From contig SYIM01000036.1 of assembly GCA_005798775.1 (NCBI GenBank), forward strand, positions 16,378-80,377: DNA of 64,000 bases, read 5' to 3'. The position numbers were made by a program, and so were the translations under genes. Of this stretch, positions 33,978 to 64,000 are shown in pieces. This DNA comes from Burkholderiales bacterium (GTDB lineage: Bacteria; Pseudomonadota; Gammaproteobacteria; Burkholderiales; Burkholderiaceae_E). Position 1 is the first letter of the stretch; every line of letters starts with the position of its first letter. The notes below the pieces were generated by a model. That model worked only from the letters and a program-made list of their open reading frames with translations, searched no databases and was not told the DNA's origin.

Positions 33978-34040
33978 CCGCACACGGCTCCCCCCGATCC
34001 GTGAGGCGAGCGGACTCACCGCTTTCCGTTGGGAGTCAGG

Positions 34041-36164: not shown

Positions 36165-36167
36165 GCC

Positions 36168-43959: not shown

Positions 43960-44058
43960 GACTGAGTCCTGTATCAATAGAGGGGAAACCGGCACAATCA
44001 TGGCGACAATCGCTTATCGCTGCTGTTTTGACACCAACCTCCGGAGGGTGACCGGGCG

Positions 44059-44982: not shown

Positions 44983-45962
44983 CGGTTGGCGCCGCCCACT
45001 TCCCGAGCAAGCGGCCCATAGGTTGCGCTGAAACGGTCGATATGCGCCTTGACGGCCTCAGGCGAATTGTCAGCGGCCAGAGGCACGGTGTGTCCGAATC
45101 CCTGCAGCCGATCGCGCACTTCCGGGTGTTCGAGCGCCGCAGCGAACTGCCGATTGAGCTCGCGCTGAATTGCAACCGGCGTGCCCTTGGGCGCGAGTAC
45201 GTAGTTGGTGATTTCCACCGCAAGCTCCGGGTACCCAGCTTCGCTTAGCGTTGGGGTATCGGGCAGCCGACTCGAACGCTTGGCTGAGGTGATGGCAAGC
45301 GGTTTGAGTCGCCCCTCATGAATGTGCGGCAGCATGAGCGTCTGGGTATCGAAAACGACTTGAACTTCATTGGAACGCAGCGCCTGAATCATCGGGGCAT
45401 TGCCCTTGTAGGGTACGTGCACCATCTTCAGCCCAGCGACTTTGTTGAAGTGCTCACCCACCAGATGCTGGGGTCCGCCGATACCGGATGAGCCCCAGGT
45501 CACCTTATCGGGCTCCGAGCGAACCCGTGTGATGAACTGAGCCAGATCAGGAAACCGCTGCGAGTTGTCGCTGTTGGTGGCCAGCACAAACGGATAGGAA
45601 TAAACGATTGCGATCGGCGTGAAGTCGTTACTGGGGTGCCATGACAGCCCAGCCACAACCGGGAGTACCGCATTCGAACTGGTCGCAATCAGCAACACAT
45701 GCCCGTCGGGGGCAGCCCGCATCAATTCGGCGACAGCAATCGCACCTCCACCACCCGGCTTGGCCTCCACGATCACCGGCTGACCCATCGTCTCCACCAG
45801 GCGCTGGACCACGATGCGGGCAACAATATCGGTGCCCCCTCCGGCTGCGAAGGGGATGATCAGCCTGATCGGACGTTCGGGAAATTTAAGTGGCTGCGCC
45901 ATGCCCGCAAAGGGCAGCCCCACCAGCATCACGATGAGGAACGTTTTCAAGAGTGAAGCCAT
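44979..45962 (-). CDS. Bug/TctC family periplasmic receptor (orphan)
   Basis: Signal peptide ..FAGMAQ, then FPERPIRLIIPFAAGGGTDIVARIVV. Confidence 0.85.
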   Translation of the reverse strand: MASLLKTFLIVMLVGLPFAGMAQPLKFPERPIRLIIPFAAGGGTDIVARIVVQRLVETMGQPVIVEAKPGGGGAIAVAELMRAAPDGHVLLIATSSNAVLPVVAGLSWHPSNDFTPIAIVYSYPFVLATNSDNSQRFPDLAQFITRVRSEPDKVTWGSSGIGGPQHLVGEHFNKVAGLKMVHVPYKGNAPMIQALRSNEVQVVFDTQTLMLPHIHEGRLKPLAITSAKRSSRLPDTPTLSEAGYPELAVEITNYVLAPKGTPVAIQRELNRQFAAALEHPEVRDRLQGFGHTVPLAADNSPEAVKAHIDRFSATYGPLAREVGGANR

Positions 45963-46833: not shown

Positions 46834-47022
46834 CGCATCGAACCGGTTGAGGAAACCACACCAACATAACCCAGCCGCCCTACCCTGTCACGCGAGCCCC
46901 GCATCCAGCGAGATACTGCGGTCCTGGCCTGCCAGATCGCCCCCCAACAGATGCCTCCCAACAGATGGACACCTGCGGGCGACTCGGATAGATTTTGCAG
47001 TCATCCAAGAAAGGCGCCCCGC

Positions 47023-47997
47023 ATGAATCGTTCCTTTATCCGCCTCGCCGCCGTACCACTCGCCGCGCTCGCATTAGCCGGACCCTGCGCGGCTCAGAGT
47101 GAGGCCTATCCGAACCGCCCCGTGCGGCTGATTGTGCCCTTCGCACCCGGCGGCCCCACCGACACCGTCGCACGGGTCATGGGTGAACAGCTTCAGCGCC
47201 AATGGAAGCAGCCGGTGGTGATCGATTACAAACCTGGGGCAGGCACCGTGGTGGGCACCCAGCTGGTGGCCCGTGCGCCCGCCGATGGCTATACGCTTGG
47301 CATGGCAATCAGCGCCCTCATGATCAATCCGGCTCTGCGAAGCGATCTGCCTTACGACACCGCGCGCGAAGTGGCAGCGGTCTGTCTCATCGGGCAGGCG
47401 CATTTCGGACTGTTCGCCCATCCGTCAACACCTTTTTCAAACGTTGCCGAGCTCATCGCCTATGCCCGGAGCCGCCCGGATGCGCTCAGCTACGCCACCC
47501 CGGGAACGGGTACGGGCACGCATCTGGCAGGCGAAATGCTCAGTCATCTGGCGGGCATCAAGATGCTTCATGTACCCTACAAGGGAAGTGCTCCGGCGCA
47601 GATGGACGTCGCAGGCGGCCGCGTACCGCTCCTCTTTGATGTGCTGTTCTCAGCCATGCCCATGGTGCGTGATGGTCGTCTGAAAGTGCTGGCACTCGCG
47701 AGTCCGCAACGTGCGCGCTCAGCGCCAGAGATCGCCCTTATCGCTGAATCCCTACCAGGTTTTTCAGCGATGAGCCTGATCGGAATCATTGGCCCGGCTG
47801 GTATGCCCACCGCGCTTCTTGATCGCATCAGTGCCGATCTGGGTGAGGCGGTTCGCGCACCCGCTGTGACCGAACGAATGAACCAGCTGGGCATGGAGCC
47901 AGTGGGTTCAACGCATGCCGAGTATTCGCGCATCGTGCGCGAGGAAATCGGCAAATGGACACAGGTGGTCAAGACCGCTCAGATCAAGCTTGATTAA
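47023..47997 (+). CDS. Bug/TctC family periplasmic receptor (orphan)
   Basis: In-frame ATG 47023. Signal peptide ..CAAQSEA, then YPNRPVRLIVPFAPGGPTDTVARVMG. Confidence 0.85.
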   Translation: MNRSFIRLAAVPLAALALAGPCAAQSEAYPNRPVRLIVPFAPGGPTDTVARVMGEQLQRQWKQPVVIDYKPGAGTVVGTQLVARAPADGYTLGMAISALMINPALRSDLPYDTAREVAAVCLIGQAHFGLFAHPSTPFSNVAELIAYARSRPDALSYATPGTGTGTHLAGEMLSHLAGIKMLHVPYKGSAPAQMDVAGGRVPLLFDVLFSAMPMVRDGRLKVLALASPQRARSAPEIALIAESLPGFSAMSLIGIIGPAGMPTALLDRISADLGEAVRAPAVTERMNQLGMEPVGSTHAEYSRIVREEIGKWTQVVKTAQIKLD

Positions 47998-51405: not shown

Positions 51406-51523
51406 GATGGAACCGGTCGGCTGCCGAATTGATATCGTTGTGTAGCATCGTTGGGATCAGCGGCGCGGTCAAATTGAACAACCATCGATATTGAACAGAA
51501 CGCAACGCCCGAGGAGGTCAATC

Positions 51524-52708
51524 GTGAAACGTTCACACCAACTTGTTTCATCCGCATTGCTGGCTCTTGCCGCGATGGGCTGCCCGGCGCTCAAAGCGCA
51601 GGCACAGGCTGCATCGCCCGCACGCCTTCAGATCGGCGTGCTCACCTCGCTCACCGGGTCGATGGCAGCGCCCGGCGTTTTCCAGATGAATGGCTTCCGG
51701 CTGGCGGTCGAAGAGATCAACGGCTCGGGTGGTCTCGCGATCGCCGGCCGCACCTATACGCTGGAGTTGAAGGTTTACGATACCCGCGCCAACCCCAGCG
51801 AGGGGGCCTCCGCCATGCAACGGCTGGCAACGGTGGACAAGGTCCCGGTGGTACTGGGTGAGTTGTCGTCCGGCGTTGCTGCCGCGATCGCCCCGATCGC
51901 GCAAGACTATTCGCTGCCCCTGGTGCTCACCGTGCCCACCGGGCCAAATCTCACCGAGCAGAACAATCCGTTTCTGTTTCGCGTCAACGCACACAACAAC
52001 CAGCTGAATCAGGCGCTCGCCGATTTCGTGAGCAAGCAGGGCTGGGCGCCCATCTCCTTTATCGCCTGGAATAACGATGCTGGCCGCGGTGGCGTCACCG
52101 GTATGCGCCAACTGCTCCCCGCCGCCACGAAAGACGGCTATGTGGGCTACTTCAATGTGGGCGAACTCGATTTCTCAAGCCATGTGTCGAATGTGCGAAA
52201 CAGCCGCGCCCAGGCTGTCATGCTGTTCATGGACGAGGAGCCAGGTAGCCTCGCCATCCGGCAACTGCGCGACGCCGGACTCAAGACCCAGATCGTAGGC
52301 ACGCTCGCCATGGGATCAGACCGCTTCCTGAAGCGACTCGATGCCCAGCGGCTCGATGGTATGGTGCAATACAACGCGTTTCCACCAAATGCCGACACGC
52401 CACGAATTCGCAATTTCAGCCAGCGCTACAAGGCGAAATACGGCGAGGAGGCACACGGCTTTGCAGCGCAGTCCTACGACGGACTGATGGTTGCGGTCGC
52501 CGCCATGCGTGCGGCGGGCACTGTGAATCATGGCAAGGCCATCCGCGATGCGCTCGCCAAAATCAAGCACGAGGGTGTGATCGGCAACATTCAGTTCGAC
52601 GCCAAAGGGCAGGCGCATCCCAGCGTCTATGTCACGCAGTGGTGCGCCGACGGTACCCGTCGCATTCTTTATCCCGAAAGCGCGAAGGCTGGCTGCGGCG
52701 CGGGCTGA
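51524..52708 (+). CDS. LIV-type ABC transporter periplasmic substrate-binding protein
   Basis: GTG 51524, 6 nt after GAGGAGG. Signal peptide ..LKAQAQA, then LQIGVLTSLTGSMAAPG. Confidence 0.85.
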   Translation: MKRSHQLVSSALLALAAMGCPALKAQAQAASPARLQIGVLTSLTGSMAAPGVFQMNGFRLAVEEINGSGGLAIAGRTYTLELKVYDTRANPSEGASAMQRLATVDKVPVVLGELSSGVAAAIAPIAQDYSLPLVLTVPTGPNLTEQNNPFLFRVNAHNNQLNQALADFVSKQGWAPISFIAWNNDAGRGGVTGMRQLLPAATKDGYVGYFNVGELDFSSHVSNVRNSRAQAVMLFMDEEPGSLAIRQLRDAGLKTQIVGTLAMGSDRFLKRLDAQRLDGMVQYNAFPPNADTPRIRNFSQRYKAKYGEEAHGFAAQSYDGLMVAVAAMRAAGTVNHGKAIRDALAKIKHEGVIGNIQFDAKGQAHPSVYVTQWCADGTRRILYPESAKAGCGAG

Positions 52709-52726
52709 TCGCAGTCAGTCGGTCAC

Positions 52727-53605
52727 ATGATGGGCGAGGCGCTTCTCGAGCAGGTAATCAACGGCCTGATGATGGGCTCGCTCTACGTGCTGGTTGCACT
52801 CGGCATGGTGCTGATCTATGGCGTGATGCATGTCGTCAATTTTGCGCACGGCGTTCTCTTCACCCTCGGTGGCTATGTCGGCGTCTTCTGTTATCAGCAT
52901 CTGGCGCCCAGCTATGCACTGGCGCTCCTGCTCTCAGTTGCCTCGCTCGCCATCGTGGGGCTCGCCATCGAGCGGCTGGTGTTTCACCCGCTCGACGGCA
53001 ATCTGCGCAATCAGGTCATCGCGTCCCTCGGGCTCATTCTGTTTTTAGAAAATCTCATCATCGCAATATGGGGCGCCACAGCGCTTCAGTGGAAGGTGGC
53101 AAGCACTGACCATCTGGTGCGTATCGGATCGCTTCAGTTCAGTCTCCACCACCTTGGCATCATTGCGATCACGCTGGTACTGGTCGCGGTCCTGGGCCTC
53201 TTTCTCAAATACTCGCGATTCGGCACTGCAATTCGTGCCACCAGCCAGAGCCGCGAGGCTGCTCTTGTGGTGGGTATTCCGGTGCGGCGCGTCCAGTGGA
53301 GCAGCTTTGCGATCGGCTGCATGCTGGCCGGACTGGGTGGCGGACTGGTCGGCCCCCTGTTCCTGGTGTTCCCGCAAATGGGCGATGTTCCGCTCGTCAA
53401 GGGCCTGGCTGGTATTCTGCTCGGCGGTATGGGCAGTGTTCCTGGCGCGGTGTTGGGGGGCATGCTGCTCGGCGTCACCGAGTCGGTATCCACGCTATTC
53501 CTGCCCACCGACTACCGCGACTCCATCGCATTCATGGTGATGGTTCTTATCCTCCTCTTCCGACCTCAGGGCCTTTTCGGCCAGCGAATCCGGGGGGAAG
53601 ACTGA
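52727..53605 (+). CDS. Branched-chain-amino-acid-type ABC transporter permease (LivH-like)
   Basis: QVINGLMMGSLYVLVALGMVLIYG and NFAHG motifs. Confidence 0.9.
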   Translation: MMGEALLEQVINGLMMGSLYVLVALGMVLIYGVMHVVNFAHGVLFTLGGYVGVFCYQHLAPSYALALLLSVASLAIVGLAIERLVFHPLDGNLRNQVIASLGLILFLENLIIAIWGATALQWKVASTDHLVRIGSLQFSLHHLGIIAITLVLVAVLGLFLKYSRFGTAIRATSQSREAALVVGIPVRRVQWSSFAIGCMLAGLGGGLVGPLFLVFPQMGDVPLVKGLAGILLGGMGSVPGAVLGGMLLGVTESVSTLFLPTDYRDSIAFMVMVLILLFRPQGLFGQRIRGED

Positions 53606-54585
53606 TGAAGTGGGCAGCTTTTGCCCCGCGCGTGCTTGGCGTCCTGGTATTGATCACGCTCCTCAGCGCCCCGGCGTGGGCGGCGGGTCATCCCTATGTG
53701 CTTCACATGCTGGTGCTGTCCTGCATCATTTCGATCGCGGCAGTGGGCCTGAATCTGATGCTGGGCTATGGCGGACTGGTGAGTCTTGGCCACATGGGAT
53801 TCGCCGGACTTGGCGCCTATGTAGCGGCGGTGCTGATGGTGGACGCACGCTGGAGTTTCTGGGGCGCGCTGGGCGCGGCAACCATTGCCTCGGCGATCGT
53901 CGGTGCGCTGATCGGTCTGATTTGCTTCCGATTCCGGGGCCACTTCTTCATGATCGTCACGCTTGCTTTTGGTCTCCTCCTTCATGCGGTCATGAACAAC
54001 TGGGATGACGTGACACGGGGCGCGGCCGGTCTGCCGGGTGTCCCCCGCCCAGCGGCGTGGCGCTGGGGCGACACAGTGATCAGCTTTGGGCAGTTACCGA
54101 ACTTCTACTATCTCGCGCTGGCCATCACGCTCGCCGTCTTTGTCGTGCAGTATCTTGTGGTGCGCTCTGATCTGGGCCGCGTGCTCGGATCGATCCGTCA
54201 GGACGAAAGACTCGCTCGTGCCCGGGGGGTCAATGTCATCGTGTTCAAAACTGTGGTGTTCGCCCTGGGGTCGGCGCTTGCCGGCATAAGCGGCGTCCTG
54301 CAGGTCTCGTTCCTGAGGGTCGCCGCACCGGCGAGTTTCACCATGCTGGAGAGCATCAACACGGTCCTGGTGGTGATTGTTGGCGGCGCGGGCTTTCTCG
54401 TCGGGCCAGCGGTCGGAGCATTGCTCTATGTCACGCTACCCGAGGCGCTGCGTCTGGCCAATGAGTGGCGACTGGTGATCTTCGGGGGTCTGCTGGTCAT
54501 CATGATGCTATTCGCGCCGCAGGGCCTCACCGGGCTAGCACACACACTGTGGCAACGCGTCACCAGTGGGCGCTTCCCGCCATGA
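53605..54585 (+). CDS. Branched-chain-amino-acid-type ABC transporter permease (LivM-like)
   Basis: In-frame ATG 53605 (TGATG overlap). GYGGLVSLGHMGFAGLGAY motif. Confidence 0.85.
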   Translation: MKWAAFAPRVLGVLVLITLLSAPAWAAGHPYVLHMLVLSCIISIAAVGLNLMLGYGGLVSLGHMGFAGLGAYVAAVLMVDARWSFWGALGAATIASAIVGALIGLICFRFRGHFFMIVTLAFGLLLHAVMNNWDDVTRGAAGLPGVPRPAAWRWGDTVISFGQLPNFYYLALAITLAVFVVQYLVVRSDLGRVLGSIRQDERLARARGVNVIVFKTVVFALGSALAGISGVLQVSFLRVAAPASFTMLESINTVLVVIVGGAGFLVGPAVGALLYVTLPEALRLANEWRLVIFGGLLVIMMLFAPQGLTGLAHTLWQRVTSGRFPP

Positions 54586-55331
54586 GCGTCCTCGAAGTGA
54601 AGGGTCTTCGCAAAGCCTACGGTGGTATTCATGCACTCGATGATGCGGGCTTTGTGATCGATTCGCCTGGTCTCTACGGTCTGATCGGTCCCAACGGCGC
54701 GGGCAAGACCACCCTCTTTGATGTGGTCGCGGGGACAGTGCAGGCCGATGCGGGCAGCGTCTGCTTTGAGGGCGAGAACATCACAGGCTGGCCGTCCCAT
54801 CGACGAGCCCTGGGCGGAATTGCGCGCAGTTTTCAGGAGTGCCGGGTCCTACCCGAGGAGACCTGTCTGGATAACGTGCTCTTTGCCGCCCAGCCAAAGG
54901 GCTTGGGCACATGCGTGCGGCAACTCGTCTCGCGCAGCAACGCCCATCGTCGTCGTGTCACAGACGAGGCCATGCGCCTGCTGAGCCTGGTACGGCTGCA
55001 GGGACATGCCCACACACCCGCCGCACAGCTCTCGTTCGGTCAGAAGCGTCTGCTCGAGCTGGTCTCGGTTTTCATGAGTGCCCCGCAATTGCTACTTCTG
55101 GATGAACCCGCCTCGGGCGTCAACCCTGCGCTGCTCGAGGTGCTGTCCGACTTCATCCGCACCATGTATGCGGAGCAGGCACGGGCCTTTCTGATTGTTG
55201 AGCACAACATGGAATTCATCATGGCGCTCGCCTCCGACATCATCGTGATGCATCAGGGCAAGGTACTGGAGCGCGGCAGTCCCCCGATCGTGCAGGCGAG
55301 CCCGCGCGTGCTGGAGGCCTACCTGGGATGA
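54582..55331 (+). CDS. ABC transporter ATP-binding protein (LivG-like)
   Basis: Walker A GPNGAGKTT, signature SFGQKRLLELV, Walker B LLLLDEP. ATGA overlap. Confidence 0.9.
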   Translation: MSVLEVKGLRKAYGGIHALDDAGFVIDSPGLYGLIGPNGAGKTTLFDVVAGTVQADAGSVCFEGENITGWPSHRRALGGIARSFQECRVLPEETCLDNVLFAAQPKGLGTCVRQLVSRSNAHRRRVTDEAMRLLSLVRLQGHAHTPAAQLSFGQKRLLELVSVFMSAPQLLLLDEPASGVNPALLEVLSDFIRTMYAEQARAFLIVEHNMEFIMALASDIIVMHQGKVLERGSPPIVQASPRVLEAYLG

Positions 55332-56044
55332 GTGCGACGCTGCGCCTGGAGAATTTCGGCGCGGGGTATGGCGCGCGACTGATCATCGAGGATGTTTCTC
55401 TCGAGGTGAATGCCGGCGAGATTGTCACCGTCATCGGTCACAACGGCGCGGGCAAGTCGACGCTGCTTCGTGGCCTGTTCAATCTGGTCCCGATTCGCCA
55501 GGGACGTGTTCTACTGAAGGGCCAGCCGGTTGAGCATCTCGCCTCCGATCGACTACTCACGGCCGGCATCGCATTCATCCCGCAACACCGAAGCATCTTT
55601 CCCCGGCTCACGATCGCGGAAAACCTCCGGATGGGCGCCTACACCGTACGCGACCCTGGCATTCTGGCCGAGCGCATGGCAGGCGTACTCAGGCTTTTCC
55701 CCATTCTTCAGAATCGTCTGGGTCAGCTCGCCGGACTGATGTCAGGCGGTGAGCAGCGAATGTTGGAAATCGCGCGTACCTTGCTGCAGGATCCCTCCCT
55801 CATCATGCTCGATGAACCGTCGATCGGCCTTGCACCGCGAATGGTCGACACGGTCTTTGACACGGTGAGGCTGCTTCGCGATCAGGGTAAGGCTGTACTG
55901 ATGGTCGAACAGAATGTTCGAAAAGCACTGTCGGCGTCAGACCGCGGCGCGGTGATGGAACTGGGAAGCCTGCGGCTAATCGATCAGGCTCGGCATCTGA
56001 TTGATGACGAGCGCGTGGCGCGGCTGTACATGGGCCGACGCTGA
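55328..56044 (+). CDS. ABC transporter ATP-binding protein (LivF-like)
   Basis: Walker A GHNGAGKST, signature SGGEQRMLEIAR, Walker B LIMLDEP. Confidence 0.9.
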   Translation: MSATLRLENFGAGYGARLIIEDVSLEVNAGEIVTVIGHNGAGKSTLLRGLFNLVPIRQGRVLLKGQPVEHLASDRLLTAGIAFIPQHRSIFPRLTIAENLRMGAYTVRDPGILAERMAGVLRLFPILQNRLGQLAGLMSGGEQRMLEIARTLLQDPSLIMLDEPSIGLAPRMVDTVFDTVRLLRDQGKAVLMVEQNVRKALSASDRGAVMELGSLRLIDQARHLIDDERVARLYMGRR

Positions 56045-56055
56045 TCGTCCGCCCG

Positions 56056-57408
56056 CTACGCACTTGTCTTGCCACGCAGGTCGGTGAACCGCTGCGTTTT
56101 CCAGCGTGCGTCCGACTGTAGCGCCCCAACTGCGACCCGCTCGACGTCGGGGGTCACCCCACAGGCGTGCTTGACCAGCCGGACCAGATCGCCAGACAAC
56201 GTGGCGTCGTCTGCGCGCTCTACTCTAACCCTGAGGCGGTCTCCAGAAAGCGGCACATCAGCGACATGCTCAACCGTGATCTGAAAGGGGCAGCCCCCCA
56301 GGTGCCGTTCGAGTTCGGCAATGACTGCGTCGGGATTCACCAACATGCCCTTGACCTTGACCAGAGCGTCTGCCCGACGAGGCGTTCGGGTCAGCCGATC
56401 GGTGACCGCACCGCAGCACGGACAGGGCTCGCGGGTGAGCACCGAGATATCGCCCAACGCATAACGCAGTAGCACCGTGCCACGCCGCTCCAGATGGGTC
56501 AGAAGCACGTTTCCCGGCTCCCCTTCAGCTAACGCTCTGCCGGTCTCGGGGTGCACGATATCGACCTGGAACTGCGCCGGTAACGGATTGTGGAGGCCTG
56601 CCCCCGGATGGCACTCGATCATGCCACCCTGCATTTCAGTGGCTCCATAGGAGATGCTCACCTGCGCGTGGTGGGCCCCCGCTGAGGCGAGCGCCGCCAT
56701 CATGTGTTCCCGCGCGGTCTCGGATAATGCCTCACCCGTGACAAATACTTTACGGACACTTGGAAGCCGGGTGCCAAGTTCGGTTGCGCGCGCGAGCACG
56801 CGCTGAACGTAGCTCGGCACCCCCCACAAAATGGTGGGAGACTGCGCCCTCAGAAGCGCGATCACCTCATCGAGCGAGCGGCCCAGATCGAAATGAGGCG
56901 AGGGGTTACCGGGCATCGCGCTCACCACCGGGATTTGCAGGCTTGCTGCGGCGTGCAGCACACGAATCCAGGCACCGTGTGGTACGGTGGTGAGTGGAAA
57001 CAGATTCGCAATCAGGTCAGTGGGCTGAACACCGCGCAGCAGCAGCATGTTCCGCTGCAGTTTGAGGATATTGAAAAAATCATAGCTGGTGGAGACAAAC
57101 GGCGTGGGTACCCCAGAGGTGGAACCCGTGGTGTACATCACATCCCAAACCGTTCGCATCTCGGGTTCGAGCCCGTCGCTTTCGAGTACGAAGCGCTGGG
57201 ATTCGGCCATGTACTGCGCCTTGGTGGTGACAGGGATACGTTCGAGATCGTCAATCGACTGAAAGTGATCGCGTCTCAGTCTCTCGCGCTGAAACAGGTC
57301 GCGGTAATAGGGATGACGCTCAAACACCAGATCAAGCGTACGAGCGAGTGCTGCCTCGCGCGCAACCCGCAGCGCCGTCAAATCGGTGTGGCCCTCGTAT
57401 CGCGACAT
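56056..57408 (-). CDS. Phenylacetate-CoA-ligase-like adenylate-forming enzyme (PaaK / coenzyme F390 synthetase family)
   Basis: 450 aa. YTTGSTSGVPTPF (AMP-binding P-loop-like motif), YGATE, and a C-terminal KVKG motif. Confidence 0.7.
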   Translation of the reverse strand: MSRYEGHTDLTALRVAREAALARTLDLVFERHPYYRDLFQRERLRRDHFQSIDDLERIPVTTKAQYMAESQRFVLESDGLEPEMRTVWDVMYTTGSTSGVPTPFVSTSYDFFNILKLQRNMLLLRGVQPTDLIANLFPLTTVPHGAWIRVLHAAASLQIPVVSAMPGNPSPHFDLGRSLDEVIALLRAQSPTILWGVPSYVQRVLARATELGTRLPSVRKVFVTGEALSETAREHMMAALASAGAHHAQVSISYGATEMQGGMIECHPGAGLHNPLPAQFQVDIVHPETGRALAEGEPGNVLLTHLERRGTVLLRYALGDISVLTREPCPCCGAVTDRLTRTPRRADALVKVKGMLVNPDAVIAELERHLGGCPFQITVEHVADVPLSGDRLRVRVERADDATLSGDLVRLVKHACGVTPDVERVAVGALQSDARWKTQRFTDLRGKTSA

Positions 57409-57416
57409 GGCCGTAC

Positions 57417-59729
57417 TCAGTCTGCCAATCCCGCCGCCACCCGGATCGCAGCCTGTGCATTCGCTTCGTTCGGCTCGAGAAGGCTTCCGGGCGCAAGTTC
57501 ACCCGGCTCGATCAGAACATGGTCGATCACTCCACCGTACGGAAATGCGTCGCGATGCGCATAGCGTTCACTCACCGACAACCGACGAGACAGCCCGACA
57601 CTCATGCCGGCAGTGGGGATACGAAGCATGGTGGGCGACAGATCAATGCCCGCCACAGACGGTTCACCGTTCAACCCAATACTCGCGTGACCCTTGCGCG
57701 CGCCGGCGGCTACGTACTCGAAGCGATAGTGCTGGCGCCCCTCAGACAGAGGGATAGGCGGCAAAGTGGTAGGTTGATGCCACCACTGATACACGCAATG
57801 AACGCGGCCCGCTTCCACAAACAGTGCAAGGCCACAAAAGCGGTCGCCGAGCGCAAAGATCACGCCCTCCTGCCCGTGAGACCACTCGAAGAAAGCCTCC
57901 AGCCGGTAGCTGCGATCGCAGACCAGTGGCGAGACCACCAGCGATGGAACTGAGGGGCCTACCGGATAGAACCGGCGTGGCATCAGCATGCGCGACACCT
58001 CATGGGGCGGTACATGGTGGTTACGACGCTCATCGCGTGTATCAATCGGGTAGACATGATTCGTACCCGCTTCGGCCTCAAATTCATCAATCAGCTGCCG
58101 CAGCCGCACCGGCTCGGTCGATGCAAGGTCGTTGATCTCAGCGGGATCATCCGCAAGGTTGAACAGCATCCAGTTATCCAGATCGATCGCCTTGTCCGGG
58201 GTCTGGAGCGACACGATCTTCCAGGAGCCCGAGATGTAGGCACGACTGCCCTGAAGTTCATAGTATTGGCGCGTTCGGGCAGCCGGCGCTCGCGCATTGC
58301 TCACAACGTGCGAGAAGCTCTTGCCATCAAACGGCAGGGTCGGGTGTTCATTGAAATGCTGCGGCATTTGCCCGCCAGCGTAGTCCATGACCGTCGGCAA
58401 AAGGTCGGTGACATGAACCCACTGCCTCCGGATGGAGCCCGGATCGACGATCTGCTGCGGCCAGTGCATCACGAGGGGCACGCGAATACCGCCTGCCATC
58501 GGCGTGCGCTTGAAATACCGGTAAGGCGTATTGCTGAGCTGCGTCCATCCGGTGGGATAGCAGACGTAGGTGTCTGCATCACCCACTCGATCTTCCTCAA
58601 GCAATCGCAGATTGAGCGCCATGTTTTCGGTTGCACCCATCCGCCGCCCGATCAGATTCATGACGCCTGAAGGCCCCGCTACCGCATTGGCGCCGTTGTC
58701 GGAGGTGAGCAGCACCAGCGTGTTGTCAAAGAGGTCCACCCGTTGCAGACAGCTCATGAGCCGGCCCACGTTCTGGTCAGCGTTATTAAGGAGCGCCGCG
58801 TACACCTCCATGTAGCGCGCAAAGAGCGCGCGCTCGTCTTCACTGAGCGATGCCCAGTCTGGCACGCCTGGGTTACGCGGCGCAAAACCTGCGTTCGGTT
58901 CGATGAGACCGGCAGCACGTTGGCGCTCATAGCGCCGGCGACGCAGCACATCCCAACCCTCATTGAAGCGGCCACGGAAGCGCTGCAAGTCCTCGGGCTT
59001 CGCGTGCAGCGGGCCGTGTGGCGTCTGAAAAGCCAGGTACAGAAAGAAAGGCTTGTCGGGTGAACTGGTGGCGTGCTGAGTGAGCCATTCCACGGCACGC
59101 TGGGTATAGTCATCGGGCGCAAAATAACCATCGGGATAGCGCACCACATGAGCCGGATGGTTACCCTCCATCATGTTGTCAGGTTGGAAATAGCTGGTTT
59201 CGGCGCCCATGAAACCGTAGAACTGATCAAACCCTCGCTGGATCGGCCAGGAGCGGGTATCGCCTCCTGGCAAATTGTTGCGGTCGTAGGTGTTGTGCCA
59301 CTTGCCCGCCGCGAGCGTGGAATAGCCCCCCGCGCGCAATAGCTCCGCCATGGTGGGAGCGGCGAGCGATATCTCACCGCCATAACCCGGATACCCCGGG
59401 TTGTTCTGAGACAGCCAGCCACAGCCCACGCCGTGCGGGTTACGCCCGGTGAGCAGGGCCGCGCGCGCGGGCGTGCACATGGGCACCGTGGTGTAGCCGG
59501 TAAAGAGCAGCCCACCCGCCGCGAGTGCATCGATATTGGGCGTATCGATATCGCCACCAAAGCACCCAAGATCCGAAAACCCCATGTCATCTAACAGGAT
59601 CACGATGACATTTGGGCTGCCAGAGCGCGCACGCACCGGAGGCAGCCAGTAGGGGCGCGATTGCGCGAGCGTCTTTGCAACGGTTACGCCGGGTGAACGG
59701 TCTGACCGTGAGGAGGCTTGGGACATCAT
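57417..59729 (-). CDS. Cys-type arylsulfatase with extra C-terminal domain, apparently cytoplasmic
   Basis: VIVILLDDMGFSDLGCFGG and CTPARAALLTGR (formylglycine CxPxR motif). There is no hydrophobic leader after ATG 59729. The ~230-aa C-terminal extension is beta-rich (lectin/LamG-like guess). Confidence 0.85.
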   Translation of the reverse strand: MMSQASSRSDRSPGVTVAKTLAQSRPYWLPPVRARSGSPNVIVILLDDMGFSDLGCFGGDIDTPNIDALAAGGLLFTGYTTVPMCTPARAALLTGRNPHGVGCGWLSQNNPGYPGYGGEISLAAPTMAELLRAGGYSTLAAGKWHNTYDRNNLPGGDTRSWPIQRGFDQFYGFMGAETSYFQPDNMMEGNHPAHVVRYPDGYFAPDDYTQRAVEWLTQHATSSPDKPFFLYLAFQTPHGPLHAKPEDLQRFRGRFNEGWDVLRRRRYERQRAAGLIEPNAGFAPRNPGVPDWASLSEDERALFARYMEVYAALLNNADQNVGRLMSCLQRVDLFDNTLVLLTSDNGANAVAGPSGVMNLIGRRMGATENMALNLRLLEEDRVGDADTYVCYPTGWTQLSNTPYRYFKRTPMAGGIRVPLVMHWPQQIVDPGSIRRQWVHVTDLLPTVMDYAGGQMPQHFNEHPTLPFDGKSFSHVVSNARAPAARTRQYYELQGSRAYISGSWKIVSLQTPDKAIDLDNWMLFNLADDPAEINDLASTEPVRLRQLIDEFEAEAGTNHVYPIDTRDERRNHHVPPHEVSRMLMPRRFYPVGPSVPSLVVSPLVCDRSYRLEAFFEWSHGQEGVIFALGDRFCGLALFVEAGRVHCVYQWWHQPTTLPPIPLSEGRQHYRFEYVAAGARKGHASIGLNGEPSVAGIDLSPTMLRIPTAGMSVGLSRRLSVSERYAHRDAFPYGGVIDHVLIEPGELAPGSLLEPNEANAQAAIRVAAGLAD

Positions 59730-59755
59730 GGCTGACCTGTAAAAACAGACCCTGA

Positions 59756-60730
59756 TTAATCGGCTTTGATATTGGCCCGCTTCACGACCGCGGTCCACTT
59801 GGCCAGGTCGTCACGCAGGTAGGCTGAAAACTGCTCAAGCGTTGCGACCGGCGCAGCCGACATTCCACTGTTCGTAAGTGCAGTTCGCAGGCCCTCGCTC
59901 AAGAGCGCGCGGTCAATCTCGGCACGGAGGCGACGCATGACGGCTGGCGAAGTGCCCTTTGGCGCCAGGATGCCCAACCACTGATCAGCTTCGAAGTCCT
60001 TGACCCCGGATTCGGCCATCGTGGGCAGATCCGGAAGCGCCGAAAATCGCTTCGCACCCGTGACGGCGATTGCGCGTACCGCACCCGACCGGATCTGCGG
60101 CAACGCCACCGCTGCGTTGGCGAACAGAATGTCGACGTGCCCCGCGATCAGATCGGTGATTGCCTGCGGTGCGCCCTTATAGGGGATGTGCGCGATATCC
60201 AGACCCATCGTGGACTTGTAGAGCTCAGTGGCGAGGTGGGCAGGCGAACCGGTGCCCGCGGAGGCGTAGGACAACTTGCCGGGGCGCGCGCGGGCCAGCG
60301 CGGTGAGCTCCTGCACCGTCTTGGCGGCCAAGCCGACATTGACCACCACGATGGAGGGCGCATACGCCACAACCGCCACTGGTGCGAAATCATTGACCCC
60401 ATCGAACGGGAGCTTCTGCCCCAGCGCTGCGTTCATGTTGAGGGCTGAAGTGGTGAGGACGAGCGTATAGCCGTCGGGGGCGGCCTTTGCCGCCAGATCT
60501 GCGCCAATCACACCGCCCGCACCCACCTTGTTATCGATCACGACGGGTTGCCCCATACTCGCCTGCAACTCCTTCGCAACAGTCCGCGCAGCGATATCCA
60601 CCAACCCGCCTGCGGGCCAGGGAACAATCATGCGAATCGGCCTTGCCGGATAGTCCTGTGCGACGGCCGATAGCGACGCGAAACTGGCGATCAGAGCGAT
60701 CGCAACGCTGCGTAAACCCGGTATGTACAT
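59756..60730 (-). CDS. Bug/TctC family periplasmic receptor
   Basis: Signal peptide ..LSAVAQD, then YPARPIRMIVPWPAGGLVDIAARTVA. Confidence 0.85.
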   Translation of the reverse strand: MYIPGLRSVAIALIASFASLSAVAQDYPARPIRMIVPWPAGGLVDIAARTVAKELQASMGQPVVIDNKVGAGGVIGADLAAKAAPDGYTLVLTTSALNMNAALGQKLPFDGVNDFAPVAVVAYAPSIVVVNVGLAAKTVQELTALARARPGKLSYASAGTGSPAHLATELYKSTMGLDIAHIPYKGAPQAITDLIAGHVDILFANAAVALPQIRSGAVRAIAVTGAKRFSALPDLPTMAESGVKDFEADQWLGILAPKGTSPAVMRRLRAEIDRALLSEGLRTALTNSGMSAAPVATLEQFSAYLRDDLAKWTAVVKRANIKAD

Positions 60731-60748
60731 GAGTTGTCCTCCTTTAAA

Positions 60749-62878
60749 TTAATGGTCAGCGATTTTCTGTTCGTTTTCACTCACCACCGGTATCGCTACC
60801 AGGCGTGCGCGGGCGCGCTCCACCGGCTCCGCCATAACATAGGCGGCGAGCCCCGCCTCACGGTCTACCGGTACCACCGTTTCGAGCGTGACGCCCCCTG
60901 CGGGCTGCAGGTGTGGCGGAAACATGGCAAGTTTCTGTCGCTCACCCAGGCGGATGCGTTCGAGATCGAGATCTCGCTCATTGATGCCCGCAACCGGGCG
61001 TTGGGCCACGCCATTTACCATTTCGAGATCGAACCACCAGCGCTTCACGGGATTTCGCATACCGTTTCCCGCAGCATCATCAGCAGCTGCGATTGCGGGC
61101 GCGAGTTCGGCATGCTCGATCGACAACCACATGAGGCGCTCGGCCTCGACCGTGTCTTCGCGATTCCAGGGGCAGGTCTTCATGCAGCGTCCACAGGCCG
61201 ACCCCTTCATATTGGTCACACGATATTTGGTGCATTTCTCAACATCAGCCTTCCAGATCTCGTAGCCGTTAAACATCACCTTCGGGCCAAACGGAATCGC
61301 GTTGCACGGGCACTCGCGCGCGCACTTTCTGCATGACTCGCAAAAGGACTGTAGACCGAAATCGATCGGTCGGTCGACTGTCATCGGCAGATCGGTGGTG
61401 AACACCACGCTTTTCGAGCGGGGTCCGATGAAGGGATTGAGGATGGTGTCACCGATCCGGCTTACTTCGCCCAGGCCCGCCATGAGAATCGCCGGGTTGT
61501 GAATGACCTCCGAGTGCGCATTCGAGTGGGAGCGCGCCGAGTAGCCCATGCGCCGGCAGTGTGCGGCCATGATTCCCGCGATCTCGGCGCCTCGCATATA
61601 GGCGCGCATCGATTGCGAGGCAGAGATCCAGTCATCGCCCGAGGCCCCCTCCATGGTCTCAAAGCCCTGATCGATCAGCATCACCACCGCATACCGGTGA
61701 TAGGCGGAAATCGGCTTGCCCTCGACTTCATCGTGCGAGTAGTACATCCAGGGCTCGGCGCGACAGATGCCCACAAAGTCGGCCCCCAGGAAATAGCCCA
61801 GCGCCTTGATTGCCTGGGCATTGGCGAGGGGATCAGACCGATCGCCGCCAAGACCCGTGGGCACCAGAGGCTCGCGTGTGCCCTGCAGTGGCACCATGCC
61901 TGCGATGAGGGGTTGCATGCCAAGCGCATAGGGATGCTTCATCGGAAAGCGCATCCGTTCACGTTTGGCCTTCTCGCCCAGATCACCGGCCTGCGCACGC
62001 TTGAAAAAATCAGCGCGCTTGGGCACTCGTACGATCGCCTCCTCTTCGACCAGCGTCGTGGGCGTATCCCGCCGGGCAATACGCTCCATTGGATACCGGC
62101 CAAGGTGCAGCGGCCGCCGGTCGAGTTCGGCATCCCACCATGCGGGGCGGGTCCCGTTCTGGCCCATCACGACGGCTGGATCGGCAGGCGCGAGTGAGCC
62201 CGCGGGGTCGAGCGCAAGATCTGCCTCAAACGCGTAGTCAGAGGTCACCGCCGCCAGCCGGAAACCACGATTGAGATACGGCGCCACAAGCATGCCTGCA
62301 TCGGCACGGATAACACCTGCGCGCTGAGCGAGCCACTCCAGATGAACCGATGTCGCCCCCGCCGCATGTCCGGTCGCGGAGAAGCCCATCTGCCTGAGAT
62401 AGCCGGACAGCACTGCAGCGAGTTCAGTCGCACGCAGATCGGTGCGCGCCGCGTTACTGCCTGCGATCCAGGCCTCACCTGACTCGCCTGGGTGCGGCTC
62501 ACGTCCAAACTCCACCAGTAACACCAGCGCATGCGTGTGCCCCGAAACAGATTCTGCCAGCCAGTCAGTCGCCTCCAGACAACAGCCCCCAACGATGCTG
62601 GCGTCCAAAAAATAGGCCGAGGCCTTCAGATTGGCCGACCGCAGCGCAGGATCGTCTGGAATCGGCGCCCGCGCAGCCGCCACGGGTCCGTTCAGATGGC
62701 GTCTAAATAGCGCGAAGTAGTCATCGAGCACATGGGTCATTGCGGCCTCGCCAGGCGTCCGGCGGTCCGACGGCAGCGCTGCACTGCTGTCCGCCTCACA
62801 AGACGGCACACGCGCTAACGCCTCAAGCGCGAGCGGTCCCAGATGGAAAGGACGGTCACGATGGCTGTAGATACGCAC
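60749..62878 (-). CDS. Reductive dehalogenase family protein, cytoplasmic catabolic type (NpRdhA/BhbA-like)
   Basis: 709 aa with no Tat/Sec leader. The C-terminal part has the RdhA-type twin Fe-S motifs FCESCRKCARECP and C..x12..CGRCMKTCPWN, preceded by a region that reads like a B12-binding core. The ~330-aa N-terminal extension agrees with my recollection of NpRdhA architecture. GTG start 62878; alternative ATG 62740. Confidence 0.6.
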   Translation of the reverse strand: MRIYSHRDRPFHLGPLALEALARVPSCEADSSAALPSDRRTPGEAAMTHVLDDYFALFRRHLNGPVAAARAPIPDDPALRSANLKASAYFLDASIVGGCCLEATDWLAESVSGHTHALVLLVEFGREPHPGESGEAWIAGSNAARTDLRATELAAVLSGYLRQMGFSATGHAAGATSVHLEWLAQRAGVIRADAGMLVAPYLNRGFRLAAVTSDYAFEADLALDPAGSLAPADPAVVMGQNGTRPAWWDAELDRRPLHLGRYPMERIARRDTPTTLVEEEAIVRVPKRADFFKRAQAGDLGEKAKRERMRFPMKHPYALGMQPLIAGMVPLQGTREPLVPTGLGGDRSDPLANAQAIKALGYFLGADFVGICRAEPWMYYSHDEVEGKPISAYHRYAVVMLIDQGFETMEGASGDDWISASQSMRAYMRGAEIAGIMAAHCRRMGYSARSHSNAHSEVIHNPAILMAGLGEVSRIGDTILNPFIGPRSKSVVFTTDLPMTVDRPIDFGLQSFCESCRKCARECPCNAIPFGPKVMFNGYEIWKADVEKCTKYRVTNMKGSACGRCMKTCPWNREDTVEAERLMWLSIEHAELAPAIAAADDAAGNGMRNPVKRWWFDLEMVNGVAQRPVAGINERDLDLERIRLGERQKLAMFPPHLQPAGGVTLETVVPVDREAGLAAYVMAEPVERARARLVAIPVVSENEQKIADH

Positions 62879-63261
62879 GAGGGCTGGATCCGCGATCAGG
62901 GTGGATTCGAGAGCATACGCCGCGCGAGCGGGTCACCGGGCTGCTCGCGCGAGCACGGCGCGATAGGGCTGCCGCGCAAACGATTCGGTGCCTTTGAGGC
63001 GATATTTCCGCGTATCGGCCTTGAGACGGACAGGTTGAACAGCCCCCTCGTCCGGCTTGAACTCATGTTGTGCGCCGTGAGCGCCGAACCCAGGGACGAA
63101 GGCGCAACTTAAAATCTTGATTTATGCTGAACAAGCGCACCAGCGCGCGCACTGCCCCGAGCCGACAATGCAACCCGTATACGGATAGATCAGCCGCCAA
63201 CATGCTTTGCGGCCAGGCTTGCGGCGTGGGCGCGCGTTCGGGGGCAAAGGGAGAGGTCCAG

Positions 63262-63813
63262 ATGTCCGCTGTGCTTCTTGAGTCAATTGCCAAAGCGTCG
63301 TAAGAGGCGGGCTTTCGCGCCTGGGTAGTTCCTGCCGCTGGTCCGCAGGCCATATCGGAGCTGTTCTGCCTGGTTCAGGTTGATGAGGCCGGGCGCAATT
63401 ATGTGGTTCACGGCATTTTTCCTGATGAGTTGTCTGGCGCATTCGGCGCCGAGCGCTCGCCGGACGACATCGTCTTCCTGCAGCTTACGCTGCCGTCACC
63501 TTTCACGGTGGAGGCAACCGGTTCCGCCGACACGGCGCTTCTTCTTCATAGCCTCAACCTGCTGACGCCCATCGGCCAGTTCATTCTGAGCGATGACAAA
63601 GGACTGATCGTGTTCCGCTCGATGCTGCCGCACCAGGCGCATAACCTACCCAGCACGCTCGTGGTCGAAGCCCTCCGAATGACACGCTTCTTTGCCACCG
63701 AATTCCTATCAATCATCGAACCGGTCGCGCAGGGGCTAAAAACCTGCCGCGACACCCTGGATGAACTTGCGCGCCAGGGCGTTCGCCTGCCCACCGTGAC
63801 CGCAGCGCGGTAG
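63262..63813 (+). pseudogene. YbjN-like / type III secretion chaperone-like gene with in-frame TAA at codon 14
   Basis: ATG 63262 follows a strong AAAGGGAGAGG RBS and is followed by 13 codons (MSAVLLESIAKAS), then the TAA at 63301-63303. The same frame stays open into the 136-codon ORF (63403-63813). The joined sequence reads like a YbjN-fold chaperone. Confidence 0.45.
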
Positions 63814-63835
63814 GCGTTACGCGCGGAGCCTCGTC

Positions 63836-64000
63836 ATGAACAGCCACGACGCCATTAACCGTCTCCTCAAGAGTTTTTCCTCGGCCTTGCGTATTGCGCC
63901 ACCGCTCACGCTCAACACGGCTGGCGTTTGTGCGTTCGACTATGAAAACGATATGAGCATCGCGGTCGAGGTCCCGGATCAGTCCTCGCAGGTTTATCTG
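63836..64000 (+). CDS. 5' part of a CesT/SycE-type type III secretion chaperone, runs off right edge
   Basis: MNSHDAINRLLKSFSSALRIAPPLTLNTAGVCAFDYENDMSIAVEVPDQSSQVYL matches the class I chaperone N-terminal pattern (L..LG..L.L..L.LD..G.C.L.....V.LE). Confidence 0.5.
   Translation, partial: MNSHDAINRLLKSFSSALRIAPPLTLNTAGVCAFDYENDMSIAVEVPDQSSQVYL

Follow-up and report, generated by a model that had tools for sequence, protein, structure and literature searches.

What would a reductive dehalogenase homologue do in a Burkholderiales bacterium, on which substrate and with whose electrons? The question is raised by a 709-codon reading frame in a stretch of DNA of 64,000 nucleotides (the window, analysed here at its full length), which a preliminary description had assigned to the NpRdhA/BhbA type. 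Taking sequence comparison, structure modelling and analogy with characterised enzymes together, we consider it highly likely that the gene, rdhA, encodes a soluble, cytoplasmic, monomeric catabolic dehalogenase that would act on an ortho-halophenol, with the substrate captured as a carboxylate by a TctC receptor and the electrons supplied by a housekeeping donor.

Reading frame, start codon and upstream region

The gene and the region in front of it are located as follows.

60749..62878, minus strand: rdhA, putative stand-alone catabolic reductive dehalogenase, 709 aa, GTG start at 62878 (from the open reading frame list and homology to NpRdhA)
62879..63402, no strand: upstream intergenic region of 524 bp, presumed promoter region, with no adjoining regulator gene

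The frame is unbroken across its 709 codons, and pairwise comparison with the orthologue in a close relative, locus L001, gave a dN/dS of 0.09 at a dS of 0.89. On this evidence rdhA is a real, intact gene under strong purifying selection. No identical record for the 709-aa protein was found by exact-sequence look-up; the nearest genome matches are Burkholderiaceae/Burkholderiales MAGs, and the DNA runs containing the gene (X1–X4) are freshwater metagenomes.

Two start codons had been considered for the gene, GTG at 62878 and ATG at 62740 (Met47), and the family alignment points to the former. In 107 of 119 family members the protein starts either exactly at the GTG 62878 column (84) or one residue earlier (23), and the L001 orthologue has an ATG aligned with the GTG. 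Residues 2–23, upstream of Met47, are conserved in the family, and identity to L001 drops sharply directly 5′ of the start codon. Met47 itself occurs in 4% of the family and is absent in L001, and ATG 62740 was rejected as the start. A canonical Shine–Dalgarno sequence was not found before the GTG. One database fragment (P0121) begins at Met47, but this is a 260-aa partial call.

Within the 524-bp upstream region we found no open reading frame with a family assignment and no match to the sigma-70 consensus. Searches of Pfam, NCBIfam and the PDB gave nothing for the small divergent ORF beyond it (63403–63813). Neither an Rfam family nor a tRNA was detected in the window, and a cobalamin riboswitch is therefore absent from our annotation. 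Such surroundings might suggest that rdhA is a decaying or non-functional relic: no promoter-like site was found upstream, no RNA-seq runs holding the gene were found, and neither a regulator, nor a redox partner, nor pathway genes adjoin it. We regard this as very unlikely in view of the intact frame, the low dN/dS and the retention of all catalytic and cluster residues.

Homology to NpRdhA and conservation of the active site

The nearest characterised enzyme, with known structure and chemistry, is NpRdhA (RdhA3 of Nitratireductor pacificus pht-3B, WP_008597722; PDB 4RAS, 6ZXU, 6ZXX, 6ZY0, 6ZY1). A phmmer search matched residues 1–694 of the window protein to residues 1–694 of NpRdhA (4RAS/6ZXU) with E=0 and 1072 bits. 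Identity is 68.8% overall, 89–91% in the catalytic core and 48–57% outside it. The protein also passes the RDH model TIGR02486, scoring 161.4 against a cut-off of 160.35. By sequence, then, the window RdhA belongs to a known kind of enzyme as a close relative (69% identical) of NpRdhA, to which it is broadly orthologous within the ‘truncated’, reductase-less catabolic clade. The two proteins share their length, a vestigial N-terminal domain, the corrinoid core, two [4Fe-4S] clusters and a C-terminal tail.

All ten NpRdhA pocket residues, whose roles are known from substrate-complex crystal structures (PMC7565698), are identical in the window protein: F290, F291, F310, P311, A419, S422, M423, Y426, K488 and R552 in NpRdhA numbering. 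The Tyr/Lys/Arg triad corresponds to Y427, K489 and R553 here. The Tyr, Lys, Arg, Ser and Met residues, together with NpRdhA F291 and F310, are invariant across the 119 family members. Against BhbA (WP_015585978), the 3,5-dibromo-4-hydroxybenzoate reductive dehalogenase encoded on plasmid pBHB of Comamonas sp. 7D-2, identity is 41% by tblastn (residues 1–680) and 46.5% in a global MAFFT pair; the triad and F291, F292, S423 and M424 are kept, P312 and A420 are replaced, and F311 is aligned to a gap. Alignment with both enzymes had been proposed as the check on the assignment, and the triad is conserved against each of them.

Predicted fold, N-terminal duplicate and Fe–S clusters

The recognisable parts of the protein, from N- to C-terminus, are:

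62207..62653, minus strand: vestigial N-terminal duplicate of the cobalamin-binding core, approximately residues 76–224 (HHalign of family sub-alignments)
61361..61834, minus strand: putative functional cobalamin-binding catalytic core, approximately residues 349–506 (91% identity to NpRdhA residues 341–500)
61169..61342, minus strand: Fe–S motif region, including R553 (motif search, Pfam and family cysteine conservation)

An AF2 model (pLDDT 79.9, pTM 0.87) adopts the NpRdhA fold, with TM 0.93–0.95 over 695–700 columns. pLDDT falls below 50 in loops 407–418, 525–529, 548–563, 606–616 and 630–651, some of them near the clusters, as expected because the prediction is cofactor-free. The core holds A420, S423, M424, Y427 and K489, the counterparts of NpRdhA A419, S422, M423, Y426 and K488. 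The suggestion that a degenerate copy of this core precedes it is borne out by an internal duplication: HHalign aligns residues 76–224 to core residues 349–506 with a probability of 99.4%, E 1.1e-21 and 28% identity, and in the duplicate the position of the catalytic Tyr is an Asp. The same vestigial domain has been described in NpRdhA, where it takes the place that a second subunit has in the dimeric respiratory enzymes, and it is specific to catabolic RdhAs (PMC10463259). The protein had been put at some 250–300 aa longer at the N-terminus than respiratory RdhAs; the extra material is indeed N-terminal, but against the solved respiratory chains of 464 and 503 aa the excess of the 709-aa protein is smaller, about 205–245 aa.

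Both RdhA-type cluster motifs lie where they had been placed. The first, C513-x2-C516-x2-C519-x3-C523-P (FCESCRKCARECP), spans residues 513–524, and the second consists of a distal C549 followed by C562-x2-C565-x3-C569-P (CGRCMKTCPWN) at residues 562–570. All of the Fe–S cysteines are invariant in the 119 family members; nine cysteines in all are invariant. The only Pfam domains detected in the protein are 4Fe-4S dicluster (Fer4-type) domains, Fer4_7 passing its cut-off of 27 with 28.8 bits and Fer4_16 falling under its cut-off of 30 with 26.5 bits, both over residues 513–572. From sequence and model we infer that the core could bind a corrinoid together with two [4Fe-4S] clusters, with the degenerate copy in front.

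The preliminary description had named, as one of the results that would overturn its assignment, a best homology to epoxyqueuosine reductase (QueG) or to B12/Fe–S proteins of other kinds that are not dehalogenases. The fold class is common to both, since QueG too is a B12 enzyme of class III and carries a 2x[4Fe-4S] module, and some database entries name relatives ‘epoxyqueuosine reductase QueG’ or ‘ferredoxin’. Nevertheless, RdhA scores only 23.6 bits against the QueG equivalog TIGR00276 (cut-off 200), in a match that covers the Fe–S region only, and Foldseek aligns the model to QueG structures at E ~3e-4 and TM ~0.2, far from the values obtained with NpRdhA. We rejected this identity as extremely improbable.

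Cellular location and electron donors

A respiratory RdhA whose anchor and signal had been overlooked would share the RDH core and cluster motifs seen here, and the respiratory enzymes PceA (Sulfurospirillum multivorans, 4UQU) and the membrane RDH complex 8Q4H do match the window protein (E 1e-26 and 3e-21, respectively). By sequence, however, they match only approximately residues 396–615 (438–615 for PceA), and in structure they reach TM 0.33–0.37 normalised to the query, or 0.50–0.56 normalised to the target chain. They are exported through the Tat system, form dimers anchored by RdhB and lack the vestigial domain. The window RdhA, in contrast, has no twin-arginine motif (RR-x-[FLIVMA]-[LIVMKA]) in residues 1–120, and its N-terminus aligns residue by residue with that of cytoplasmic NpRdhA. 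Nor was an RdhB-like or other small multi-TM ORF present among stop-to-stop segments of at least 50 aa, with no upper size limit, in positions 59000–64000, where TM-like windows occurred only in the TctC ORF and in a shadow ORF that lies within the sulfatase gene (both genes are described below). There is next to no probability that the protein is respiratory, and the earlier reading of a protein with neither Tat leader nor anchor stands. The TctC ORF has two TM-like windows, one of which was put down by eye to its signal peptide.

The reading that no fused or adjacent reductase is encoded was likewise upheld. Pfam found neither a Fer2 nor a flavin-reductase domain, and hence no fused PDOR-type module, in RdhA, and no ferredoxin, flavodoxin or FNR/PDOR-type reductase among approximately 50 ORFs of the window. 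A tblastn search with the N. pacificus FdR, its two ferredoxins and the BhbA reductase module had no match in the window. Motif scans gave no other plausible Fe–S motif in any ORF of the window. NpRdhA likewise has no Tat signal, RdhB or fused reductase; in N. pacificus, however, rdhA is directly followed by genes for a pyridine-nucleotide oxidoreductase, a 2Fe-2S ferredoxin and a 7Fe ferredoxin, whereas the window rdhA is followed by a TctC receptor gene. We looked for these partner genes in 80 related loci, of which 78 have a full rdhA ORF call and 60 of those at least 2 kb downstream. L003 alone had them, and L004 a remnant of them; dedicated partner genes in the clade are those of N. pacificus, plus one remnant. 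Regular-expression scans for Fe–S motifs proved very noisy in high-GC shadow ORFs; it is the tblastn probes that can be relied on. Judged by these sequences, a missing neighbouring reductase is typical of the reductase-less clade and no peculiarity of this locus. The N. pacificus FdR and ferredoxin proteins reportedly fail to drive NpRdhA. That dedicated FdR and ferredoxin genes are no clade feature agrees with this published failure, and points to housekeeping donors.

Neighbouring genes and a possible uptake receptor

Three genes follow rdhA in the same direction.

59756..60730, minus strand: tctC, Bug-family periplasmic solute receptor, 18 bp downstream of rdhA (Pfam TctC 254.7 bits)
57417..59798, minus strand: Cys-type sulfatase, 793 aa, abutting or overlapping tctC (Pfam Sulfatase 196 bits); link to rdhA uncertain
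56056..57408, minus strand: PaaK-like AMP-dependent ligase, 450 aa, 8 bp after the sulfatase gene (Pfam AMP-binding); link to rdhA uncertain

The tctC gene, so close to the 3′ end of rdhA, had gone unmentioned in the preliminary description. It is a probable operon partner of rdhA and a candidate substrate-uptake receptor. Its dN/dS is 0.095, an 86% identical orthologue occupies the same place in L001, and two further loci (L031 and L035) have TctC genes directly 3′ of rdhA on the same strand. On pBHB, a TctC-family gene by Pfam abuts bhbA on the same strand; it lies upstream, in contrast to the downstream tctC of the window, to which its product is 37% identical. BhbB is said to have been described as a TRAP-type receptor; its gene is TctC-family by Pfam. 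The pairing with bhbA, at the level of the family, suggests a halogenated aromatic carboxylate as the substrate of RdhA. Against this, the rdhA–TctC link is statistically weak: the window alone holds nine TctC genes, an adjacent TctC is absent in most of the 78 related loci, and the rdhA-adjacent TctCs of distant loci are only 38–43% identical to that of the window, which is paralogue level.

We also considered whether rdhA, tctC, the sulfatase and the ligase form a four-gene operon for sulfated halogenated phenolic acids, in which the sulfatase, as an arylsulfatase of the cytoplasm, would expose the phenolic OH required by the dehalogenase, and activation of the dehalogenated aromatic acid would fall to the PaaK-like ligase. 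All four genes are read in one direction; 18 bp lie between the first two and 8 bp between the last two, tctC and the sulfatase gene either overlap or lie approximately 26 bp apart, and the junctions contain no terminator-like site, the only two such hairpins, both weak, lying inside rdhA and the sulfatase gene. The sulfatase translation shows a Cys-type CxPxR motif (CTPARAALLTGR) and no obvious signal peptide, and the mechanism of NpRdhA needs a free ortho-phenolic OH (PMC7565698). The order rdhA–tctC–sulfatase is preserved in L001, but L001 is so close a relative (86–88% protein identity) that the order may merely be inherited. In no other of the 80 loci is a sulfatase paired with rdhA, the ligase is missing even from L001, and the ligase may instead belong to a convergent Liv-type ABC transporter cluster at 51491–56044. 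The arylsulfatase-like matches of the one and the phenylacetate-CoA-ligase-like matches of the other are far under every NCBIfam equivalog cut-off. A four-gene operon of this kind therefore seems unlikely.

More broadly, stand-alone catabolic RdhAs of Burkholderiales may be repeatedly coupled to TctC/Bug receptors, as in the window, L001, L031, L035 and bhbA on pBHB, as the two parts of a module that would ‘capture and dehalogenate’ halogenated aromatic carboxylates, drawing on the general ferredoxin pool and perhaps extended here to sulfated halophenolics by a cytoplasmic arylsulfatase. We offer this generalisation as a speculative one that is doubtful on balance. If it is true, the adjacent TctC would be a direct handle on the natural substrates of the clade. 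The recurring neighbour offers, through receptor ligand screening, a cheap route to them. Neither the partner-gene nor the TctC observations change the current understanding of the family.

Proposed function

RdhA very probably acts on halogenated phenolic acids, from which it would remove bromine or chlorine; this activity is predicted from its sequence. Because the active site is identical to that of NpRdhA, we infer binding of an ortho-halogenated phenol, for which 3,5-dibromo- or 3,5-dichloro-4-hydroxybenzoate, or 2,6-dibromophenol, would be candidates. From the gene context, an aromatic carboxylate is the probable substrate; the TctC receptor, whose gene is putatively co-transcribed with rdhA, would catch it in the periplasm, and a TctAB permease with genes elsewhere would bring it into the cell. 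In the active site, the phenolic OH would be held by S423, K489 and R553 while the halogen ligates the cobalt, and two one-electron transfers via the clusters, with a proton from the Y427/K489 dyad, would yield halide and the dehalogenated phenol. As electron donor, a housekeeping ferredoxin or flavodoxin with an NAD(P)H reductase would serve, with no dedicated partner. The role would be catabolic or detoxifying, not respiratory, in an aerobic freshwater Burkholderiales bacterium.

An NpRdhA-like protein could also have another substrate or reaction in the cell: it might act on other phenolics, iodinated ones among them, or catalyse a B12-dependent reduction that removes no halogen. Few catabolic RdhAs have so far been assayed (PMC10463259, PMC13101508), NpRdhA itself has no established natural substrate, and outside the core the two proteins diverge to the extent given above. 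Still, ortho-halogenated phenols are the substrates of every catabolic RdhA characterised so far (PMC10463259), and with the complete identity of the pocket and a core about 90% identical to that of NpRdhA we find such a departure quite unlikely.

Distribution of the family and related systems

Relatives are present in at least 588 species genomes, so that the family is well populated and not rare, as had been supposed. Characterised catabolic RdhAs are few: NpRdhA, BhbA, JtRdhA and a Roseobacter enzyme. Clustering of all ORFs in the 80 related loci gave no universally conserved partner gene, only rdhA shadow ORFs and heterogeneous neighbours. By sequence reading the latter include SDR, amidohydrolase-2, LysR, TRAP/TctC receptors, GST, FAH, acyl-CoA enzymes and FAD monooxygenase, and Pfam confirmed representatives of Amidohydro_2, DctP, LysR and TctC.

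The host of NpRdhA is a marine alphaproteobacterium and that of the window RdhA a freshwater betaproteobacterium. The latter adds to the family a freshwater Burkholderiales representative with an active site identical to that of NpRdhA, and for that reason it should be expressible and assayable by existing protocols. BhbA is, like the window RdhA, a catabolic enzyme from Burkholderiales, but its 1071 aa include a fused flavin-reductase-like and 2Fe-2S (PDOR-type) module at approximately residues 854–1058 (DmmA-like_N and Fer2), and its gene is plasmid-borne amid protocatechuate-cleavage genes. The self-sufficient JtRdhA of Jhaorihella thermophila, likened here by its description, is a further member of the catabolic family that shares the triad and is specific for ortho-bromophenols (PMC10463259); it is approximately 39% identical to NpRdhA and, unlike the window RdhA, is fused to a PDOR module.

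Identity and active site of the reductive dehalogenase

The gene under study, rdhA, is an intact stand-alone catabolic reductive dehalogenase gene of the NpRdhA type, a known and structurally solved kind named here after the crystallised Nitratireductor pacificus enzyme. The ORF, its two cluster motifs and the absence of a twin-arginine leader, all noted in the preliminary description, were reproduced by a mechanical ORF list and translation, with no twin-arginine motif in residues 1-120 (residues are numbered from GTG 62878):

60749-62878 (-), rdhA ORF, 709 aa, GTG start
C513-x2-C516-x2-C519-x3-C523-P, first cluster motif of the protein, FCESCRKCARECP
Distal C549, then C562-x2-C565-x3-C569-P, second cluster motif, CGRCMKTCPWN

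When all PDB chain sequences were searched with phmmer, NpRdhA (4RAS, 6ZXU, 6ZXX, 6ZY0, 6ZY1) was matched end to end (E=0, 1072 bits, query 1-694 versus chain 1-694), followed by respiratory PceA-type enzymes covering only residues ~396-615 (E 1e-26 and 3e-21). The protein passes the NCBIfam reductive dehalogenase model TIGR02486 with 161.4 bits against a cut-off of 160.35, while identity as epoxyqueuosine reductase (QueG) was rejected, its NCBIfam equivalog scoring 23.6 bits where 200 are required. An alignment of 119 family sequences gives identities to NpRdhA of 68.8% overall, 91% over NpRdhA 341-500 and 89% over 501-580, and 9/9 cluster-region cysteines are invariant.

Substrate-complex structures of NpRdhA define a hydrophobic pocket (F290, F310, P311, A419, M423), ligands of the phenolic hydroxyl (S422, K488, R552) and a proton-donating dyad (Y426/K488) (PMC7565698), and F291 is counted among the strictly conserved active-site residues (PMC10463259). 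All 10 NpRdhA active-site residues are identical in the rdhA protein, with numbering shifted by +1 (Y427, K489, R553). In BhbA, the Comamonas sp. 7D-2 enzyme with a fused reductase (sequence from plasmid pBHB), Y, K, R, S and M are kept at the equivalent positions, so that the Tyr/Lys/Arg triad proposed for checking is conserved in both alignments. The two contrary outcomes considered in the preliminary description, a missing triad and QueG as best homologue, are both contradicted, since the active-site residues are identical, NpRdhA is the best match and QueG falls far below its cut-off. By analogy, we have high confidence that the mechanism of NpRdhA would transfer to the rdhA protein.

Four RdhA subfamilies have been defined, among them a reductase-less 'truncated' catabolic clade (PMC10463259). 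The rdhA protein belongs to this naturally truncated clade, because Pfam finds no domain in it apart from the 4Fe-4S dicluster, whereas in BhbA residues 854-1058 add a flavin-reductase-like and a 2Fe-2S domain.

Predicted fold and N-terminal duplicate

An AlphaFold2 model built from an input alignment of 38 sequences reached a mean pLDDT of 79.9 and a pTM of 0.87, with low-confidence loops chiefly near the cofactor sites. The suggested structure prediction returned the NpRdhA fold: the top 14 Foldseek matches in the PDB are all NpRdhA chains (TM 0.93-0.95, 695-700 aligned columns, rmsd 2.4-2.8 Å), PceA gives TM 0.33-0.37 normalised to the query and 0.50-0.56 normalised to the target, and QueG ~0.2. 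A degenerate repeat of the cobalamin-binding core had been suspected in the N-terminal extension, and profile-profile comparison agrees, aligning residues 76-224 with 349-506 (probability 99.4%, E 1.1e-21, 28% identity); the catalytic tyrosine position is an aspartate in the N-terminal copy. This matches a published account in which a vestigial duplicated domain imitates the interface through which respiratory RdhAs dimerise (PMC10463259).

Start codon and constraint

Judged from sequence comparison, the rdhA start codon is GTG 62878. In the closest genomic relative, a Burkholderiaceae MAG (L001, 88% protein identity), an ATG stands exactly opposite this GTG in the alignment, and nucleotide identity between the two drops directly 5′ of it, with a coding pattern 3′. 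The start lies at the same column or one residue earlier in 107 of 119 family members (84 exact, 23 with one extra residue), and residues 2-23 are conserved, R2, S5, R9, E19, L21 and R23 each being identical in at least 93% of family sequences. The alternative start at ATG 62740 (Met47) was rejected, as 4% of the family share Met47 and L001 lacks it. No strong Shine-Dalgarno sequence precedes GTG 62878. The frame is intact, with dN/dS 0.090 at dS 0.89 against L001.

Membrane anchor and redox partners

The absence of an anchor and of a fused or nearby reductase, as first described, was upheld by each search made. In 59000-64000, the downstream TctC gene is the only stop-to-stop segment of 50 aa or longer that has two or more TM-like windows, leaving no candidate for the membrane anchor RdhB. 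A pattern scan across the 64 kb, taking in all ORFs of 45 aa or more, confined 4Fe-4S/2Fe-2S motifs to rdhA and two obvious shadow ORFs, and Pfam searches of ~50 window ORFs returned transporters and assorted catabolic enzymes; ferredoxin, flavodoxin, FNR/PDOR-type reductase and cobalamin genes were all absent from the matches. By contrast, three genes directly follow rdhA of N. pacificus (L003), in agreement with PMC10463259; they encode a pyridine-nucleotide-disulphide oxidoreductase and two ferredoxins, first a 2Fe-2S and then a 7Fe type. Neither these three proteins nor the BhbA reductase module gave a tblastn match in the window.

Across 80 related loci, tblastn found the N. pacificus partner genes in L003 itself and otherwise in L004 only, there as a ferredoxin and a remnant of the reductase; the BhbA module gave a single weak match, ~6 kb from rdhA in L064. 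At L004 8004-8540, in a MAG, the stretch after rdhA contains short fragments that match the N. pacificus ferredoxin reductase at its C-terminal end only, and beyond them an intact 2Fe-2S ferredoxin (67% identical to that of N. pacificus), an arrangement that looks like a decayed version of the partner cluster. Since the probes recur only in L003 and L004, and 3′ sequence of 2 kb or more was available for 60 of the 78 loci where an rdhA ORF was called, dedicated redox-partner genes are not a feature of the clade; their absence is the rule and the locus is not peculiar. [quoted passage not shown] The most economical inference is that reductase-less enzymes would draw on housekeeping low-potential carriers.

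Family distribution

A word-indexed search found 2,663 proteins related to the rdhA protein at E <=1e-10, of which more than 120 are full-length at >=65% identity; their source labels read 'reductive dehalogenase', 'ferredoxin', 'Fe-S protein' or, wrongly, 'QueG'. At least 588 genomes (one per species) carry a relative, mostly Burkholderiales and Alphaproteobacteria among the matches listed. With these numbers such enzymes are not rare, as had been supposed, though the remark that few are characterised is fair. The catabolic-specific N-terminal 340 residues matched 465 clusters at 50% identity (245 at E <=1e-10), including ~700-aa forms and fused ~1,040-1,090-aa forms. Relatives of ~41-42% identity, PDOR-length or stand-alone, lie on eight plasmid records, and the published phylogeny includes truncated-clade Burkholderiales members (JOSHI_001, Noviherbaspirillum) (PMC10463259). 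DNA runs containing all sampled words of rdhA are freshwater metagenomes, with smaller shares in estuary, river and drinking-water samples; a search of RNA runs for the gene gave no match.

Gene neighbourhood and the adjoining TctC gene

The genes around rdhA are as follows:

Upstream of rdhA, 524 bp without assignable gene, then a divergent 136-aa ORF
59756-60730 (-), TctC/Bug-family periplasmic receptor, 324 aa, 18 bp 3′ of rdhA; Pfam 254.7 bits
57417-59798 (-), Cys-type sulfatase, 793 aa, after tctC; motif CTPARAALLTGR
8 bp after the sulfatase, PaaK-like AMP-dependent ligase, then a convergent Liv-type ABC transporter cluster

The receptor has two TM-like windows, the N-terminal one resembling a signal peptide by eye, and a dN/dS of 0.095. 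In the 78 related loci where an rdhA ORF was called, an HMM built from the window TctCs found 21 TctC genes; three (L001, L031, L035) share the strand of rdhA and lie directly 3′ of it. In L051, TctC genes lie close on both sides, though the scripted distance of the upstream copy appears unreliable. The L001 gene is the sole orthologue (86% identity), the others (38-43%) being no nearer than the window's own paralogues. Adjacency by chance has to be reckoned with, because the window holds nine TctC genes and one tctA in 64 kb, a multiplicity that raises the chance of a TctC adjoining any given gene:

3710-4831, 22983-23951, 26516-27535, 27698-28675, 29971-30696, 42973-44001, 44979-45962, 46951-47997 and 59756-60730, TctC/Bug-family genes
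5296-6810, tctA permease gene

We take the nine genes to be the Bug-gene expansion known from some Burkholderiales. A link is favoured by the characterised bhbA, which likewise has an adjoining same-strand TctC-family gene, directly 5′ on pBHB (NC_021077.1, 4947-5960; RefSeq annotation; Pfam 222 bits); this gene has reportedly been described as a TRAP-type receptor, and Pfam places it in the TctC family. A functional rdhA-tctC pairing is thus plausible, if tentative. TctC/Bug receptors characteristically bind carboxylates, so a real pairing would indicate a halogenated aromatic carboxylate, e.g. 3,5-dihalo-4-hydroxybenzoate, as natural substrate. The recurrent TctC pairing parallel to bhbA, the resolved start codon and the finding that partner genes are not a clade feature are the small gains that the analysis adds to present knowledge.

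A sulfated-halophenol pathway for the locus is an attractive but weakly supported idea; among related loci, a sulfatase adjoins rdhA only in L001 and the ligase in none. The sulfatase is unusually long, its sulfatase-type domains stopping near residue 560 and ~230 C-terminal residues lacking a family, and has no evident signal peptide. Its listed GTG start overlaps the tctC end by 43 bp, and an alternative internal ATG lies ~26 bp past the tctC stop.

Other features of the window

GC content is even (0.58-0.66), and tRNA and Rfam scans of the window gave no match. Searches of Pfam, NCBIfam and PDB sequences gave no match for the divergent 136-aa ORF (63403-63813, +); a copy with 83% identity occupies the same relative position in L001 (9289-9681) and is found in no other locus. 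Beyond it, an ORF at 63836-64000 (+), beginning MNSHDAINRLLKSFSSAL, runs off the window end and by eye recalls small secretion-chaperone-like proteins. The TctC ORF at 29971-30696 (-, 241 aa) matches its profile over positions 1-197 of 274 only, perhaps through C-terminal truncation or a frameshift; its start overlaps that of an aconitase-family gene at 30679. Directly 3′ of another TctC gene, a 731-aa ORF (23980-26175, +) has no Pfam family, and its residues 517-643 alone match NCBIfam 'fused MFS/spermidine synthase' (55.7 bits). At 34029-38477 (+), a hydantoinase A/B (oxoprolinase-type) pair, the B subunit with an acetone-carboxylase-gamma-like C-terminal domain, adjoins a LysR regulator and a TRAP transporter in a catabolic, transporter-rich region.
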